NCBI GenBank assembly: GCA_017399265.1
Contig: JAFQDL010000009.1
Coordinates: 130,078-194,077 of the forward strand
Reading direction: 5' to 3'
From: Clostridia bacterium
GTDB lineage: Bacteria > Bacillota > Clostridia > Christensenellales > UBA1242
DNA: 64,000 nucleotides
Position numbers and translations under genes: made by a program. Positions 45,697 to 57,545 of the stretch are shown here, one piece after another. Position 1 is the stretch's first letter, and each line of letters starts with the position of its first letter. Under the pieces are notes generated by a model. The model made no database searches. It worked only from the letters and a program-made list of their open reading frames with translations, and was not told the origin of the DNA.

Positions 45697-45750
45697 ATAT
45701 TTGTAGAATTTACTTGAAAAATGTTGTATAAAATGATATTATCATAATAC

Positions 45751-45875
45751 CTATTAAGAGTGTGTTAGGGACAGCCCCTTTGATCACACAGCAACCTGAC
45801 GATAGTTAAGGTGCTAAAGGCTGAACGATGGGATAATATGGTTTTTGCTCCCATCGATCGATGGGAGTTTTTTTG
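45751..45875 (+). promoter_or_regulatory. SAM-I (S-box) riboswitch with terminator, upstream of metK
   Basis: TTAAGAG...AGGGAC.GCCCC..TGA...CAGCAACC...AAGGTGCTAA fits the S-box core. The expression platform ctcccatcgatcgatgggag plus T7 (45849..45875) sits 13 nt before metK. Confidence 0.8.
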
Positions 45876-45888
45876 TGGGAGTGTGTAA

Positions 45889-46983
45889 ATGAGAAGAATA
45901 ATAACAAGTGAATCTGTAAATATGGGGCACCCAGACAAAACCTGTGATATTATAGCGGATTCTTTTTTAGACGAGGCTTTAAGGCAAGATCCTAATAGTC
46001 AAATGGCGGTAGAGTGCGCAATAAAAAATAATAAACTTTTTATATATGGTGAAGCTACTACTACAGCGAATATAGATTATGACAAATTAGCAAAAGAAGT
46101 TCTTTTAGATTTGGGATATGATTGTGACTTTGAGATTACAAAGGAATTAAGCGTTCAGAGTCCACAAATTAATAAAGCGGTTGTTGGTGAAGAATTAAAG
46201 GCAAACGATCAAGGGATTATCTATGGATATGCTACAAACGAAACGGAAGAATTTATGCCAATGCCTATTATTTACGCACATAAGTTAATGAAAGAGTATG
46301 ATATATTTAGAAGAAAGGACACAAGGTTTAAATCTGATGCAAAATCTCAGGTGTCAGTAGAATATGAAGGGGATAAGCCAGTAGCTATTAATACGATACT
46401 TGTTTCTGTTTCTCATATCTCTGGACTAGATAATGCAACAATAAATTCTGAGATTATTAACAATGTGATAAAGCCAGTATTTAGCAAATGTGCTATTTAT
46501 AACGAAGAAAATGTTAAGATAATAGTAAATCCAAGTGGTGAATTTTCCATTTGGGGAAGTTTTGGTGATAGCGGCTGTGTAGGCAGAAAAATAGTTGTAG
46601 ATACTTATGGCGGTGTTGGAAGGGTCGGAGGAGGTTGCTTTAGTTCTAAAAATGCAACCAAGATAGATCGTAGTGCGGCATATTATGCAAGATATGTAGT
46701 AAAGAATATAGTTGCTAATGGATTAGCAGATAAGTGTGAAATACAATTATCGTATGCTATTGGTATAGCTGAACCAGTTAGTATATATGTAGATACTTTT
46801 GGAACTGAAAAGATTGCAGTAAGCAAAATATACGACTATATAAACAACAATTATTCTTTTTCTGTATCTAATATCATAAAGGAATTAGATTTGTTAAAAC
46901 CAATATATAAGCAAACTGCATGTTTCGGACACTTTGGAAGGCCAGAGTTTGCTTGGGAAAAAATAAATAAATTTCAAAAATAA
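45889..46983 (+). CDS. metK: S-adenosylmethionine synthetase
   Basis: 364 aa with SESVNMGHPDKTCD, GDQGIIYGYA-like DQGIIYGYAT, and DTYGG motifs. Confidence 0.95.
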   Translation: MRRIITSESVNMGHPDKTCDIIADSFLDEALRQDPNSQMAVECAIKNNKLFIYGEATTTANIDYDKLAKEVLLDLGYDCDFEITKELSVQSPQINKAVVGEELKANDQGIIYGYATNETEEFMPMPIIYAHKLMKEYDIFRRKDTRFKSDAKSQVSVEYEGDKPVAINTILVSVSHISGLDNATINSEIINNVIKPVFSKCAIYNEENVKIIVNPSGEFSIWGSFGDSGCVGRKIVVDTYGGVGRVGGGCFSSKNATKIDRSAAYYARYVVKNIVANGLADKCEIQLSYAIGIAEPVSIYVDTFGTEKIAVSKIYDYINNNYSFSVSNIIKELDLLKPIYKQTACFGHFGRPEFAWEKINKFQK

Positions 46984-47654: not shown

Positions 47655-47734
<80 letters not shown>

Positions 47735-47774: not shown

Positions 47775-48428
47775 ATGCGGGCATAGCCTATGTTACTAGC
47801 ATAGCGAAATCGCTTACCCCCTGTCTGCCACTCGCGACGCTCACCTTTATTTTTTAAATGGGTCTATTAATTCCGTTATTGTCATTTGTTCTGCCAACTT
47901 ATTTTCTTTTAGTTGGTTCGCGATATATTCTTTTATTCTCTCAGTGTTTTTACCAACCGTGTCTACATAGTAGCCACGGCACCAAAACTCTCTGTTTCTA
48001 TATTTAAATTTCATATTTGCAAATTTTTGATAAATTAGTAAACTACTTTTACCTTTTAAGTACTCCATAAAACTGCTTATGCTAGTTTTAGGAGGAACCT
48101 CAACTAACATGTGAATATGGTCTGGGCATAATTCTGCTTCAACGATATTAACGCCTTTCCATTCACACAACGACCTTAGAATTGCTCCTATATCTCTCCT
48201 ATATTTTCCATATACTACCTGTCTTCTATATTTTGGTGCAAACACAACATGATACTTGCAATTCCAAGTCGTGTGTGCTAAACTATTAGTGTCTTTCATA
48301 GACATTTTCTCCTTATGTTCTAATATTACGTCTGGGCAGACTACATATTTTAACATAAGGAGTTTTTTTTGTTCAACGGTAAACCTCCACTGACCCCCCA
48401 GACTATCTGGGGGTTTTCTAAAACAAAA
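47775..48428 (-). mobile_element. IS200/IS605-family insertion sequence (tnpA only), boundaries approximate
   Basis: A Y1 transposase gene is flanked by GC-rich subterminal hairpins (cccccaga/tctggggg at 48387..48405, agcga/tcgct near 47813). The size of ~0.65 kb fits IS200. Confidence 0.55.
47847..48305 (-). CDS. tnpA: IS200/IS605-family Y1 (HUH) transposase TnpA
   Basis: AHTTWNCKYHVVFAPKYRR, the HUH motif PDHIHMLV and a C-terminal YIANQ. Start set at ATG 48305 after AAGGAG. Confidence 0.9.
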   Translation of the reverse strand: MSMKDTNSLAHTTWNCKYHVVFAPKYRRQVVYGKYRRDIGAILRSLCEWKGVNIVEAELCPDHIHMLVEVPPKTSISSFMEYLKGKSSLLIYQKFANMKFKYRNREFWCRGYYVDTVGKNTERIKEYIANQLKENKLAEQMTITELIDPFKK

Positions 48429-54196: not shown

Positions 54197-55373
54197 TAAT
54201 TATGCAATAAACGTCATCTTCTGCATTTAAACTGTTATGTAATATATTTGCTCTAACTCTACAACCGCCACTACAGTTTTTACATTTATCAGTTTTCTTA
54301 TTACAACAAAAATTATATTTTGATGTAAGAATTTTCCATATTTGCTTAATATCAAATGCTTGTATTGTTCCTAAAATATTGCAGTCATTAGTCATGCTAG
54401 GGCAAGGGTACACATTACCATTAGACTTAATATAAACAAATCTATCTCCAATGCCACAACCTACAGATATTGCATCTTTATTTATTATGTTGTAATGATT
54501 TTCATAAATATCTTTAATAATTTTTGCAGATTCTTGAATTGAATTGTCTAAATCATTTGCTCTTCCTTCTGGAATGATTACATCTAAAACACTTTTAACA
54601 TTTAGAGAGTCTATAAATCCAATCATTTCTTCTATATGTTCTTTATTGTGTTGTCCAACCATACTATTAATAGTAACTGGTATATTATTGTTTTTTAATA
54701 TTTTAATTGCCTCTATCGTTCTTTCAAATGATTTTGGCATGCCTCTAAATTGATTATGACATTCTGCATGACAAGAATCTACGCTTGTAACAATTTCTTT
54801 TACTCCATATTTCTTAAACATATTTAAGAAGTTGTCATTAAATAAAGTTAAATTAGTAAATATTCTAACTAAAAATCCATTCAAATAACAATATTCCAAT
54901 AGTTTGTCTAAATCTCTGTACATAAGAGGTTCTCCACCAGTAAAGTCAATTTGATATGTTCCATATTCTTTGGATTTTTCTAGAGTAGAGATAATGTCTA
55001 AATAATTTAATTCTTGTTGTTCAGTTGAAGAAAAACTTCCATAACAATGAGCGCATTTTAGGTTGCATTTGCTTGTAAGCTCAAAGAATAATCTAGCACA
55101 ATTAAATTCTTTAACATCTTTAATATTTTTAATAACATTAGAGCTTTCATAAGTTATTACATTTAAAGAAAGAAGATTGTTAATAATCTCCGAAGAGTAT
55201 TTATTAGAATAAAAACTTTGAATGTTTGTATTATCTTTAACATCTTTTAACAAATCAAACATTTGCTCATTAATGTTATATGTTGTTTTTGTTTGTCTGT
55301 CAAAAATAAAGCATTTATGCTCAAATTTATTATTAACTATAACACAACTATCGTTAATATATAAGTTTCTCAT
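54171..55373 (-). CDS. Radical SAM/SPASM-domain peptide maturase with N-terminal RRE-like (PqqD-like) domain
   Basis: 400 aa. About 95 residues precede TSKCNLKCAHCY (CX3CX2C), then FTGGEP. The C-terminal part is CGIGDRFVYIKSNGNVYPC...CCNKKTDKCKNCSGGCRVRA (SPASM pattern). TAGGAG SD. Confidence 0.85.
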   Translation of the reverse strand: MRNLYINDSCVIVNNKFEHKCFIFDRQTKTTYNINEQMFDLLKDVKDNTNIQSFYSNKYSSEIINNLLSLNVITYESSNVIKNIKDVKEFNCARLFFELTSKCNLKCAHCYGSFSSTEQQELNYLDIISTLEKSKEYGTYQIDFTGGEPLMYRDLDKLLEYCYLNGFLVRIFTNLTLFNDNFLNMFKKYGVKEIVTSVDSCHAECHNQFRGMPKSFERTIEAIKILKNNNIPVTINSMVGQHNKEHIEEMIGFIDSLNVKSVLDVIIPEGRANDLDNSIQESAKIIKDIYENHYNIINKDAISVGCGIGDRFVYIKSNGNVYPCPSMTNDCNILGTIQAFDIKQIWKILTSKYNFCCNKKTDKCKNCSGGCRVRANILHNSLNAEDDVYCIINGVADEKY

Positions 55374-55400
55374 TATTTACTCCTATTTAAAATAAGAAAA

Positions 55401-55428
55401 GGGTGCAAAGAACTTATTCTCTGCACCC
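55401..55428 (-). terminator. Hairpin/attenuator between precursor peptide gene and maturase genes
   Basis: Minus strand reads gggtgcagagaataagttctttgcaccc followed by ttttcttatttt. It starts 13 nt after the peptide stop. Confidence 0.65.
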
Positions 55429-55440
55429 ATTCTTGTGGAA

Positions 55441-55530
55441 CTAGTTGCAGTGGCAAGTTCCAACAGCCATTTTAGCTTGAGAATCATTAGTAGCAACTAC
55501 AGTAATTGTTGGTGTTACTTTTTGTTCCAT
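55441..55530 (-). CDS. Candidate RiPP precursor peptide, 29 aa (MEQKVTPTITVVATNDSQAKMAVGTCHCN). Not in the supplied ORF track.
   Basis: Hand-translated from the minus strand. ATG at 55530 lies 7 nt after AAGGAGGA, TAG at 55443..55441, and a hairpin follows. It sits immediately upstream of the rSAM/SPASM gene, and its only Cys residues are in the C-terminal CHCN. Confidence 0.65.
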   Translation of the reverse strand: MEQKVTPTITVVATNDSQAKMAVGTCHCN

Positions 55531-55592
55531 ACAAAATTCCTCCTTTTACTAAAATATGTATATCAACTCAATGTTTTGAGAATATACCTTGT

Positions 55593-57545
55593 TTATAACT
55601 CTAGAGGGTCGTAGGTTCTTTGACTATATTTAACCCTATGAGTTCTACCAGGTTGTTTATCCAGCAATTTACAAGTTTGACCCATTTGTGTTTGAATAAA
55701 ATCTATTTCATTTCTTGGATCAAATCCAGCAAATTGGTTTTCTTTTATAACTTCAGTTGGTTTATAGCTATCAAATTCAAATATGATTTTACCCAAACCA
55801 CTTGTAAGCACTGGAAGTGTCTTTAAAATCTTAGATGAATCAAGTGCCGAACACTTTCCATGAACAACAATTGATTCTTTGCCGTATTCAATATTTGTAA
55901 TTGTTGCACCTTGGTTACTTAACATTGATATTACCGCTTTCAAATCTCTTTCATTTGTTATTAAATCATATTTATTATATGGTTCTAACAATTTAGCTCC
56001 AGACTCTTTTAACGCTCTATACAAGGCAATAGGCGTTGCAATATTAAAGTGCATAGGTTCAGATATTACGCTGTCGCTTCTAGCACTTATTAGTGATATC
56101 TTACAATCTGTCAACTCCCATCCGTGTAGTGAATTTTCTTTATAGTAATTTATCAATCTTTCTATTTGCTTTACATATTTAGGATGAATTGTTTCTTGTT
56201 TCACTTCATCAACAAACACAACTCCTTCACCACGTTTTAGCGGTGTAACTCTAAATTCAACAGCAGAACAGCTTGTATAAGATGCTTTACCTGTAGACTC
56301 TTGTATAGGAGTTTCTTTATATATAACACCAAAATCCTTTAATTCAACATCAACAGCAAATCTTTCAGCAATAAATTGTCTTATAATTTCGGCTTGCACT
56401 TGCCCCATAACATTTATTTTTAATTGAGAGGTTTTTTCATTATATTGGAAATTAAGATAAGGATCCTCAATTGTTAAAATCTTTAATGCATTTACCGCAT
56501 TTTCAATTTCGCCTTCTTTTACAACAACTTCTACACTATATAAAGGTTTATGGAAATTCAACTTTGTGTGAGGCGGGTATTTCCCAATAACTTGACCACA
56601 AACCAAATCTGAACCTTGAATTATTGCAACATCACCTTGTTGAATTGTATCAACTTCCATTAATTTATTTCCATTTGCAACTAACAAGTTTTTAATTTTA
56701 AAGCTTTCGCCATTAATGGTTAATGCTTGTCTTTTAGATATTTCTCCACCAAATATTTTAACGTAAGCATTCTTTATACCATTATCCACTCTTACTTGAT
56801 AAACTAATGCTGATAATTCATCTTGTTTTTCATGGCTGATATTTATTTGAGATAAGAAATCAAACAATCTGTCAACACCCAAGCCATTCAATGCACTACC
56901 TGAAAATACTGGCATTACATTTCCACTTTTCAAAAGTTCGAGTAAACGCTCCAACGATTTAACTTTTTTATTATTTACATATTTGTCAAAAGTATCTTCA
57001 TCAAATTCTGCTAATTGTTCTGTTATTTCATCGTTGCTAAAATTAACAATCTTGCCATTATCAACTTTATTTATGTATACAAATCTTCCATGTAAATTTG
57101 TATCAAAATCTTTTTTAACTCTAGATAACGACGCTCCAAATCTATCCATCTTGTTAACAAATACTATTGTAGGAATATTATTTTCGCTTAAAGATTTGTA
57201 AATTTGATAAGTTTGTGCTTCTACACCTTCCACTCCAGATACTACCATGATAGCACAATCCAAAACACTCATAGATCTTTCAACTTCTGCAACAAAGTCA
57301 ATATGTCCTGGGGTATCTATTAAATCATAATTATTCTTGCCCGCAGAAAAAGATACTAATGAGGATCTAACAGTAATTCCTCTTTCTTGTTCAACTTTTA
57401 AGTTATCGGTTACTGTGTTTCCATGATCAACTCTTCCAACAGATTTAATAACGCCTGCCGACTTAAGTAATTGTTCAGTTACCGTTGTCTTTCCTGCATT
57501 TGCATGAGCAAACACACCAATTGTAATTTTATTTGGCATATTCAC
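55593..57545 (-). CDS. Tet(M)/Tet(O)-type ribosomal-protection-like translational GTPase
   Basis: 650 aa, Tet(M)-like length and shorter than EF-G. Has G1 AHANAGKTT, DTPGHIDF and NKMD. The C-terminal GWELTDCKISL...LLEPY... aligns by eye with Tet(M) domains IV and V. Confidence 0.8.
   Translation of the reverse strand: MNMPNKITIGVFAHANAGKTTVTEQLLKSAGVIKSVGRVDHGNTVTDNLKVEQERGITVRSSLVSFSAGKNNYDLIDTPGHIDFVAEVERSMSVLDCAIMVVSGVEGVEAQTYQIYKSLSENNIPTIVFVNKMDRFGASLSRVKKDFDTNLHGRFVYINKVDNGKIVNFSNDEITEQLAEFDEDTFDKYVNNKKVKSLERLLELLKSGNVMPVFSGSALNGLGVDRLFDFLSQINISHEKQDELSALVYQVRVDNGIKNAYVKIFGGEISKRQALTINGESFKIKNLLVANGNKLMEVDTIQQGDVAIIQGSDLVCGQVIGKYPPHTKLNFHKPLYSVEVVVKEGEIENAVNALKILTIEDPYLNFQYNEKTSQLKINVMGQVQAEIIRQFIAERFAVDVELKDFGVIYKETPIQESTGKASYTSCSAVEFRVTPLKRGEGVVFVDEVKQETIHPKYVKQIERLINYYKENSLHGWELTDCKISLISARSDSVISEPMHFNIATPIALYRALKESGAKLLEPYNKYDLITNERDLKAVISMLSNQGATITNIEYGKESIVVHGKCSALDSSKILKTLPVLTSGLGKIIFEFDSYKPTEVIKENQFAGFDPRNEIDFIQTQMGQTCKLLDKQPGRTHRVKYSQRTYDPLEL

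Follow-up and report, generated by a model that had tools for sequence, protein, structure and literature searches.

We examined a 64,000-nt stretch of DNA from a Clostridia bacterium (GenBank assembly GCA_017399265.1, contig JAFQDL010000009.1; hereafter called the window), wherein a 29-codon open reading frame (ORF) lies upstream of a gene for a radical S-adenosylmethionine (rSAM) enzyme with a SPASM-type C-terminal domain. The ORF and the gene cluster to which it belongs are encoded on the minus strand, and all coordinates are those of the window (Table 1). The original prediction for this locus was that the ORF codes for the peptide substrate of the adjacent enzyme. Rereading of the minus strand from 55250 to 55700 recovered every feature on which that proposal was built, namely a Shine–Dalgarno (SD) sequence, the ATG, the 29-amino acid (aa) frame, its TAG stop codon, a hairpin followed by a T-tract, and the downstream rSAM/SPASM gene. 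The stem of the hairpin has 12 bp, including 6 G-C pairs, is capped by a 4-nt loop, and begins 12 nt past the stop codon within the 67-nt spacer that separates the ORF from the rSAM start at 55373. It is the sole terminator-like site in the region from 54900 to 56000, from which shuffled sequences yield 0.4 ± 0.8 such sites, and it is a candidate for a partial terminator or a transcript-stabilizing element. A scan upstream of the ORF did not reveal a convincing promoter. As had been described, the encoded peptide carries exactly two cysteines, which reside on either side of a histidine inside the last four residues, and no Gly-Gly motif was found in it.

The original prediction also called the ORF unannotated. 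This is correct for the gene track supplied with the window, from which the ORF is absent, but the exact 29-aa product has already been called in public assemblies, where it occurs on 65 contigs and is always unnamed or 'hypothetical'. The commonest variant of the peptide was found on 760 contigs by exact look-ups. No Pfam or NCBIfam model matches the peptide, and the family was not found in literature searches.

To define the family, we scanned one genome per species together with metagenome contigs, which provided 36 orthologous loci (L001–L015 and L080–L100). Relatives of the peptide were found by exact look-ups and by motif scans of the retrieved loci, and pooling these with the cluster members gave 57 distinct peptides of 27 to 37 aa. 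The adjacent 400-aa rSAM enzyme is represented by approximately 57 orthologue clusters with 34 to 93% identity, and their sources are all gut or rumen metagenomes or metagenome-assembled genomes named Bacilli, Firmicutes, or Clostridia. A homologous ORF is present with its frame intact in 34 of the 34 other loci that cover the site (35/35 with the window), and thus the ORF and the rSAM gene co-occur at every such locus, down to an enzyme identity of 36%. All 35 loci have an SD sequence ahead of the ORF that matches 5 or 6 of the 6 bases of AGGAGG. Two of the 36 loci do not cover the site: one (L084) has lost the peptide and the first ~23 codons of the rSAM gene, and the other (L099) is a chimeric fragment. 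Throughout 1.95 Mb of retrieved DNA, CHC-terminated frames that also contain PTI(T/S)VV are confined to the orthologous loci. The most distant locus (L014), whose rSAM is 36% identical, has the peptide gene relocated between the second rSAM gene and a GTPase gene, with an SD sequence and a hairpin of its own; here the peptide gene (MIKITFKKKKIKEPTISVVELDEKLASVSFASCHCSN; L014:5822-5935) is directly upstream of the TetM-like GTPase gene and not of an rSAM gene.

The pattern of nucleotide substitution indicates that what is maintained at these loci is the peptide. Residues P7, T8, C26, H27, and C28 (window numbering) are invariant in the alignment, and each uses both of its synonymous codons (CCA/CCT, ACA/ACT, TGC/TGT, and CAC/CAT). 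The Ser residue that follows CHC in some clades is encoded by TCA in one subclade and by AGT or AGC in others. Position 3 of the codon is the most variable (0.37 versus 0.22 for positions 1 and 2), and the 26 nucleotide versions of the ORF contain no stop codon or frameshift. We therefore conclude that conservation follows the reading frame. Consistent with this, the ratio of nonsynonymous to synonymous differences (pN/pS) is approximately 0.1 to 0.4 in most within-clade pairs that have several differences, and the ORF has 2 differences in 90 nt between close relatives (87–88% rSAM identity) whose flanks have diverged more. Every clade has a hairpin downstream of the stop codon (z = −1.6 to −7.5), with stems of unrelated sequence in different clades (GGGTGCA..., GCATTGGC..., GAGAAACAGG..., and GAAGCAC...). 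It is a separate, structurally conserved element that does not account for the conservation of the ORF. These comparisons indicate that the precursor gene is real, is under purifying selection, and is genetically locked to its set of enzymes.

The enzyme encoded next to the ORF is predicted to bind a leader peptide. Its AlphaFold2 model (predicted local distance difference test score, or pLDDT, of 90.8) begins with strands at residues 10–15, 20–25, and 30–33 that are followed by helices at residues 36–47, 52–58, and 61–69. This three-strand, three-helix layout is predicted to be a recognition element (RRE) of the type used for peptides that the ribosome synthesizes and that are then modified post-translationally (RiPPs). 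The best folds in the PDB for the model are SkfB, SuiB (including its complex with SuiA), CteB, and TigE, and the family profile aligns with CteB and SuiB across the RRE regions of both. Among 40 maturase orthologues, N15, F22, I34, N35, F39, L67, the CxxxCxxC motif, and the SPASM cysteines are invariant. The C-terminal domain matches Pfam SPASM at 21.2 bits, which is marginally below the cutoff of 21.5. In an NCBIfam scan, no enzyme of the cluster exceeded the cutoff of any specific family; the maturase scored 135 bits with AhbD and 122.6 with StsB (cutoffs between 500 and 850; 625 for StsB), 82.9 with AlbA (cutoff 850), and 84.8 with MftC (cutoff 265), and it is below every cutoff for the thioether-forming families AlbA, SkfB, StsB, PapB, and SCIFF. 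A plasmid collection contained no match to the 400-aa protein. The nearest match in a named, cultured species is an rSAM/SPASM protein of Streptococcus catagoni with 27% identity (L016:6826-8211), and this gene is preceded by a 47-aa ORF ending in ...ELKGRCPPTG, which represents a different peptide family.

The 57 peptides share a common layout, in which a basic and variable N-terminus is followed by the block (K)PTI(T/S)VV, a variable spacer, and a conserved tail of 8 to 10 residues. The sequence of the tail is specific to each clade and takes the forms MAVG(T/V)CHCN, MAV(A/S)SCHCSA, FACASGTCHCSA, and VSFASCHCSN. CHC is present in all 57 peptides, and the residue after it is Asn or Ser depending on the clade. 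The distance from the Pro residue of the N-terminal block to the first Cys of CHC is 18 to 21 residues, and is 19 in 44 of the 57 peptides. This near-constant spacing fits a fixed reach from a leader-binding site to an active site.

The tail also predicts which further enzyme a cluster encodes. Clusters whose peptides end in CHCN (11 loci and the window) all include a gene for a pyridoxal phosphate (PLP)-dependent enzyme, and none has a third rSAM gene. In contrast, clusters with CHCSA or CHCSN tails (18 loci with three types of core) all carry a third rSAM/SPASM gene, located immediately after the first rSAM gene, and none has the PLP enzyme. There are no exceptions to this pairing in the 29 loci and the window. 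The best NCBIfam match of the third rSAM protein is MftC, over its full length and at 123.9 bits (cutoff 265), and its profile aligns over the whole length with anSME. Both MftC and anSME act at one particular residue in a peptide, and the site for MftC is C-terminal. The correlation is as would be expected if the last residues of the peptide were the site of chemistry. Public gene calls for the CHCSA clade include a 67-aa ORF situated between the first rSAM gene and the third (L165:11205-11408). CHCNT, the sole tail besides these, was rejected as a fourth functional type because it derives from an orphan remnant without enzymes. At that remnant (L167:9477-10116, and likewise L168), a GNAT gene and the peptide gene remain, all of the rSAM, GTPase, and M29 genes have been deleted, and homology to intact clusters stops inside the hairpin that follows the ORF.

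The pattern of conserved block, spacer, and tail, together with the match between tail and enzyme, supports the division into an N-terminal leader and a C-terminal core that had been proposed for the window peptide, and we regard this model as likely. A role for the cysteines as crosslink donors or metal ligands, which was part of the same proposal, is plausible. The CHC cysteines are the only ones in 25 of the 57 peptides, and therefore a third Cys is not essential. We give roughly even chances to thioether chemistry at the cysteines. A crosslink centered on the histidine is unlikely, though this residue is invariant and H-C-N and H-C-S conform to an aromatic-X-X motif.

Co-occurrence with the rSAM gene, conservation at the level of codons, and the predicted RRE of the neighboring enzyme all support the claim that the ORF encodes a substrate peptide. 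On the sequence evidence, it is very likely a genuine precursor gene, and we assign a probability of about 0.8 to the broader reading that it encodes the precursor of a previously undescribed rSAM RiPP pathway of gut Firmicutes.

Table 1. Features of the precursor locus and the surrounding gene cluster in the window.
Feature	Coordinates	Strand	Remarks
SD sequence AAGGAGGA	55538..55545	-	7 nt (ATTTTGT) separate it from the ATG at 55530
Precursor peptide gene, 29 aa, MEQKVTPTITVVATNDSQAKMAVGTCHCN, stop TAG	55441..55530	-	Putative leader ~residues 1–20 with PTITVV recognition block; putative core ~21–29 with invariant C26-H27-C28
Stem-loop (55428-55401) and T-tract TTTTCTTATT	55391..55428	-	Between precursor and enzyme genes
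rSAM/SPASM maturase, 400 aa	54171..55373	-	Predicted N-terminal RRE (~residues 1–75); CxxxCxxC at C103/C107/C110; SPASM-type C-terminal domain
Probable pseudo-rSAM, 273 aa	53375..54196	-	SPASM-like C-terminal half, no CxxxCxxC; gene overlaps next gene
Second rSAM, 311 aa	52477..53412	-	No SPASM domain
M29 aminopeptidase, 376 aa	51346..52476	-	Peptidase_M29, E = 1.4e-51
GNAT acetyltransferase, 168 aa	50856..51362	-	Position varies among loci
Predicted fold-type-I PLP-dependent enzyme, 397 aa	49652..50845	-	Invariant K213 (in SHTK) and D181
M16 (insulinase-type) peptidase, 405 aa	48454..49671	-	Window's own subclade only
TetM-like translational GTPase, 650 aa	55593..57545	-	Present wherever a locus extends far enough
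IS200/IS605 transposase	47847-48356	-	Distal flank of cluster
tRNA-Arg(CCT)	47655-47731		Distal flank of cluster

The genes around the precursor ORF form a tight, co-directional array that extends from the GTPase gene (57545) through the transposase gene of an IS200-type insertion sequence (47847). Across the 36 loci, the peptide, the 400-aa rSAM, the 273-aa protein, the 311-aa rSAM, and the TetM-like GTPase are kept in all clades. M29 was not detected in L014 and is kept in all other clades, and GNAT, which is present in most loci, was not detected in the L009/L015 subgroup. The order of the genes varies, such that GNAT either follows M29 or immediately precedes the peptide gene, and the GTPase gene can be first or in the middle of the cluster. 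From these comparisons we define the conserved set as the peptide, two or three rSAM enzymes, the pseudo-rSAM, the M29 aminopeptidase, GNAT (except in L009/L015), and the TetM-like GTPase. The unit is therefore wider than originally recognized, with the GTPase, second rSAM, pseudo-rSAM, M29, PLP enzyme, and GNAT (with the same exception) all belonging to it. The M16 peptidase was rejected as a core component because it is restricted to the window's subclade. Base composition exhibits no GC shift across the cluster of the kind sought as a mark of a genomic island.

The 273-aa protein is confined to clusters of this type, with 51 relatives of which none is named. It has no Pfam or NCBIfam match, and a search of the PDB with the single sequence was empty. 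The SPASM hairpin of the rSAM enzymes in the same cluster aligns with the C-terminal half of this protein (hhalign probabilities of 81% and 74%). According to an exhaustive profile search, the distant relatives of the protein are true Radical_SAM proteins, and the aligned part comes after the rSAM core in them. The protein lacks CxxxCxxC, and in one clade its cysteines are lost as well. It is probably a pseudo-rSAM that works with the 311-aa rSAM enzyme, which has no SPASM domain and whose gene its own gene overlaps.

Searches of the PDB with the 397-aa protein were likewise empty, both with the single sequence and with a profile. Its distant homologues carry PF01053, and its structural model (pLDDT of 92.6) matches methionine gamma-lyases, AONS, SPT, CalE6, and LmbF. 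By its modeled fold, this protein is a fold-type-I PLP enzyme. A homologue with 38% identity belongs to another small-peptide operon, which is carried by a Mob/resolvase element (L160:3879-12147, and also L161 and L162). The operon in L160 comprises a 29-aa ORF (MIKFIKSLFSKKLDKNDLELLAICETHRS), a PPDK_N/PEP-utiliser protein, ThiF, a 343-aa protein, the PLP enzyme, SBP_bac_5, and an ABC-F ATPase, the last of which is another family of the ribosome-protection type.

The unusual conserved component of the cluster is the 650-aa GTPase. Residues 7 to 597 align with TetM/TetO at 300 bits (E ~3e-88), compared with 199 bits for the best EF-G, and the protein contains GTP_EFTU, EFG_III, EFG_IV, and EFG_C, which is the full EF-G-type set of domains. 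Its G1, G3, and G4 motifs are readable as AHANAGKT, DTPGH, and NKMD. It scores 452 bits with the NCBIfam model tet_protect, below the cutoff of 775. In 30 orthologues, the sequence GLYYSPVSTP at the tip of TetM domain IV (window 56050-56100) is replaced by a loop specific to this family. In TetM, this loop is the part that reaches the tetracycline site. Most CHCN loci have G(K)SDSVCSDP, the window's subclade has ARSDSVISEP, and the CHCS clade has GKCDNVGSDP; these differences could reflect co-evolution with the product or shared ancestry alone. Oxytetracycline producers use the ribosomal protection protein Otr(A) for self-protection, and a GTPase inside a biosynthetic operon resembles this use, which leads us to propose that it shields the producer from a product directed at translation. 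By this analogy, a ribosome-targeting product with GTPase-based immunity is a tentative proposal whose chances we put somewhat short of even.

We infer the chemistry and the target of the pathway as follows. The RRE of the maturase would bind the PTITVV segment, with the C-terminal tail positioned in the active site. The 400-aa rSAM enzyme, and the 311-aa rSAM enzyme together with the pseudo-rSAM, would then install radical crosslinks on the tail, for which the candidates are Cys thioethers and/or bonds from the His ring to a beta-carbon. The residue after CHC may be tailored by the enzyme particular to each clade, which would be the PLP enzyme for Asn and the MftC-like third rSAM enzyme for Ser-Ala or Ser-Asn. 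Removal of the leader would fall to the M29 aminopeptidase, a candidate leader-trimming enzyme, and in the window's subclade also to the M16 peptidase, and GNAT might acetylate the exposed amine to finish or detoxify the product. The hairpin after the ORF could let the precursor mRNA exceed the enzyme mRNA. The GTPase would shield the ribosome of the producer, which would imply a small product that targets translation. Our best guess is thus a small, crosslinked, CHC-derived product acting on the ribosome. The more specific version, wherein a very small, rSAM-crosslinked product of the CHC tail binds the ribosome near the decoding center and the GTPase of the operon is a dedicated immunity factor, is possible but less likely than not.

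Several points weigh against this pathway or parts of it. The pooled pN/pS across clades is 0.54, a value that is inflated because synonymous sites are saturated. The correlation between tail and enzyme is confounded by phylogeny and perhaps reflects only a few evolutionary events. Because the maturase scores far below every curated cutoff for RiPP maturases, the type of bond cannot be read from homology, and the GTPase could serve a role other than immunity. Finally, no conserved transporter or exporter was found among the compared clusters, which is more in keeping with a cofactor inside the cell than with an antibiotic that is secreted.

This last point is one of several that favor a different fate for the same precursor, in which it gives rise, inside the cell, to a cofactor derived from the peptide or to a small molecule that binds metal, by the logic of pyrroloquinoline quinone (PQQ) or mycofactocin, and the GTPase is not an immunity protein. 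The reactive site at the extreme C-terminus resembles that of MftA, the third rSAM matches MftC best, the M16 protein weakly matches PqqF, and the combination of exo- and endopeptidases could degrade all but a tiny core. Furthermore, C-H-C is a classic metal-binding triad. However, the clusters contain no mycofactocin or PQQ accessory genes, all scores are below the family cutoffs, and a cofactor pathway leaves no room for the TetM-type GTPase that every clade retains in the operon. Loss of the cluster at the strain level, its truncation, and its interruption by insertion sequences suit an accessory trait for competition. We therefore consider a cofactor unlikely.

The arrangement here, in which a terminator-like hairpin starts 12 nt past a short ORF and an operon begins soon after, is also that of a regulatory leader or arrest peptide, which might govern the hairpin and thereby attenuate expression of the rSAM operon or of the GTPase, as do the leaders of tet(M) and erm genes. 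Indeed, tet(M) of Tn916 is regulated by a short leader peptide. Such a role is very improbable here, given that two blocks of amino acids at a fixed spacing are kept among clades with hairpins of unrelated sequence, and that the tail residue covaries with the tailoring enzyme. Moreover, the hairpin does not overlap the ORF, no alternative antiterminator pairing was found, the neighboring enzyme has a predicted peptide-binding RRE, and the GTPase gene is three or more genes distant in most loci. A chance ORF in AT-rich intergenic DNA, which might be suspected because the frame has only 29 codons and many ORFs of at least 25 aa arise by chance in a window of 27 to 31% GC, is refuted by its retention at every covered locus, by the strong SD sequence at each, and by the codon-aware substitutions, and its likelihood is negligible.

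The proposed precursor and maturase resemble the pairs SkfA/SkfB, CteA/CteB, StsA/StsB, and SuiA/SuiB. As in those systems, a short precursor is encoded directly upstream of an rSAM enzyme with an N-terminal RRE and a SPASM/twitch domain, the core contains Cys, and a hairpin lies between the precursor and enzyme genes; these enzymes are also the top matches in structure and sequence. However, the maturase is far below the cutoffs for sactipeptide, ranthipeptide, and streptide enzymes (for StsB, 123 bits versus 625), the core corresponds to the last few residues of the peptide, and an invariant His resides between its two Cys residues. The cluster also differs in encoding two or three rSAM enzymes, a pseudo-rSAM, M29, the PLP enzyme, and a TetM-like GTPase, and in having no dedicated exporter or protease-transporter.

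Triceptides contain three-residue cyclophanes formed on aromatic-X-X motifs, and those that involve His, made by HtkB on HTK and HaaB on HAA, are linked from His C2 to a beta-carbon (PMC11499958). In a formal sense, all 57 peptides carry such a motif with His as the first residue, as either H-C-N or H-C-S, and the third position of the motif (Asn or Ser) is the residue that varies between clades. Here, however, the motif is single, is located at the extreme C-terminus, and has its His between invariant Cys residues. The triceptide synthase ChlB ranks 32nd among PDB folds for the maturase (Foldseek, E = 1e-10), behind SkfB, SuiB, and CteB, and there is no family-level match.

Similarities to the mycofactocin and PQQ pathways are the proposed small product formed from few residues of a ribosomal peptide, chemistry located C-terminally, an rSAM/SPASM enzyme that carries a predicted RRE, cluster-encoded peptidases that include M16, the lack of an exporter, and, in the CHCS clade, a third rSAM nearest to MftC. 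The differences are the absence of MftB/D/E/F and PqqB/C/D from the clusters, scores below cutoff, the presence of a GTPase of the ribosome-protection type, and a CHC core where that of mycofactocin is Val-Tyr. In comparison with Tet(M), Tet(O), and Otr(A), the GTPase aligns from end to end and has the same set of domains, but it falls below the family cutoff, has a distinct loop in domain IV (YYSPVST in TetM), and lies within a RiPP operon. M29 enzymes are absent from a 2023 review of RiPP leader proteases (PMC10885120), and a review of RiPPs that target translation does not mention ribosomal protection or TetM (PMC7136475).

The cluster is therefore a widespread new version of a known type of system, distinguished by its conserved TetM-like GTPase. 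It represents a new and tractable RiPP family that is found widely in the gut metagenomes of humans and ruminants. Simple experiments on new radical chemistry should be possible because its C-H-C core is minimal and invariant and because Asn with the PLP enzyme separates cleanly from Ser with the third rSAM. If the proposed immunity function is true, this would be the first RiPP with immunity of the ribosomal-protection type, and it would provide a natural function for a lineage sister to the tet(M)/(O)/(W) resistance genes, which are also in circulation in the gut. The occurrence of the GTPase in every sufficiently long locus suggests that proteins of the tetracycline-resistance type may have native immunity roles against peptide-derived translation inhibitors in the gut.

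The cluster has decayed in some strains. In one, an insertion sequence with a 396-aa transposase splits the 400-aa rSAM gene (L097:2210-3400); in a second, the rSAM gene is in two ORFs (L095:1208-2409); and in a third, the peptide gene and the 5′ end of the rSAM gene are missing (L084:3400-4300). The chimeric fragment excluded from the ORF comparison contains a 1252-aa ORF that joins an N-terminal fragment of the rSAM enzyme to a GLUG-motif protein (L099:59-3817); either chimeric assembly or disruption of a gene is the probable cause. A few kilobases from the cluster in the window, a SAM riboswitch (57 bits; 45748-45867) is located upstream of metK (45889-46983). This riboswitch-metK pair is thus near genes for two SAM-consuming enzymes, and the arrangement is an ordinary one.

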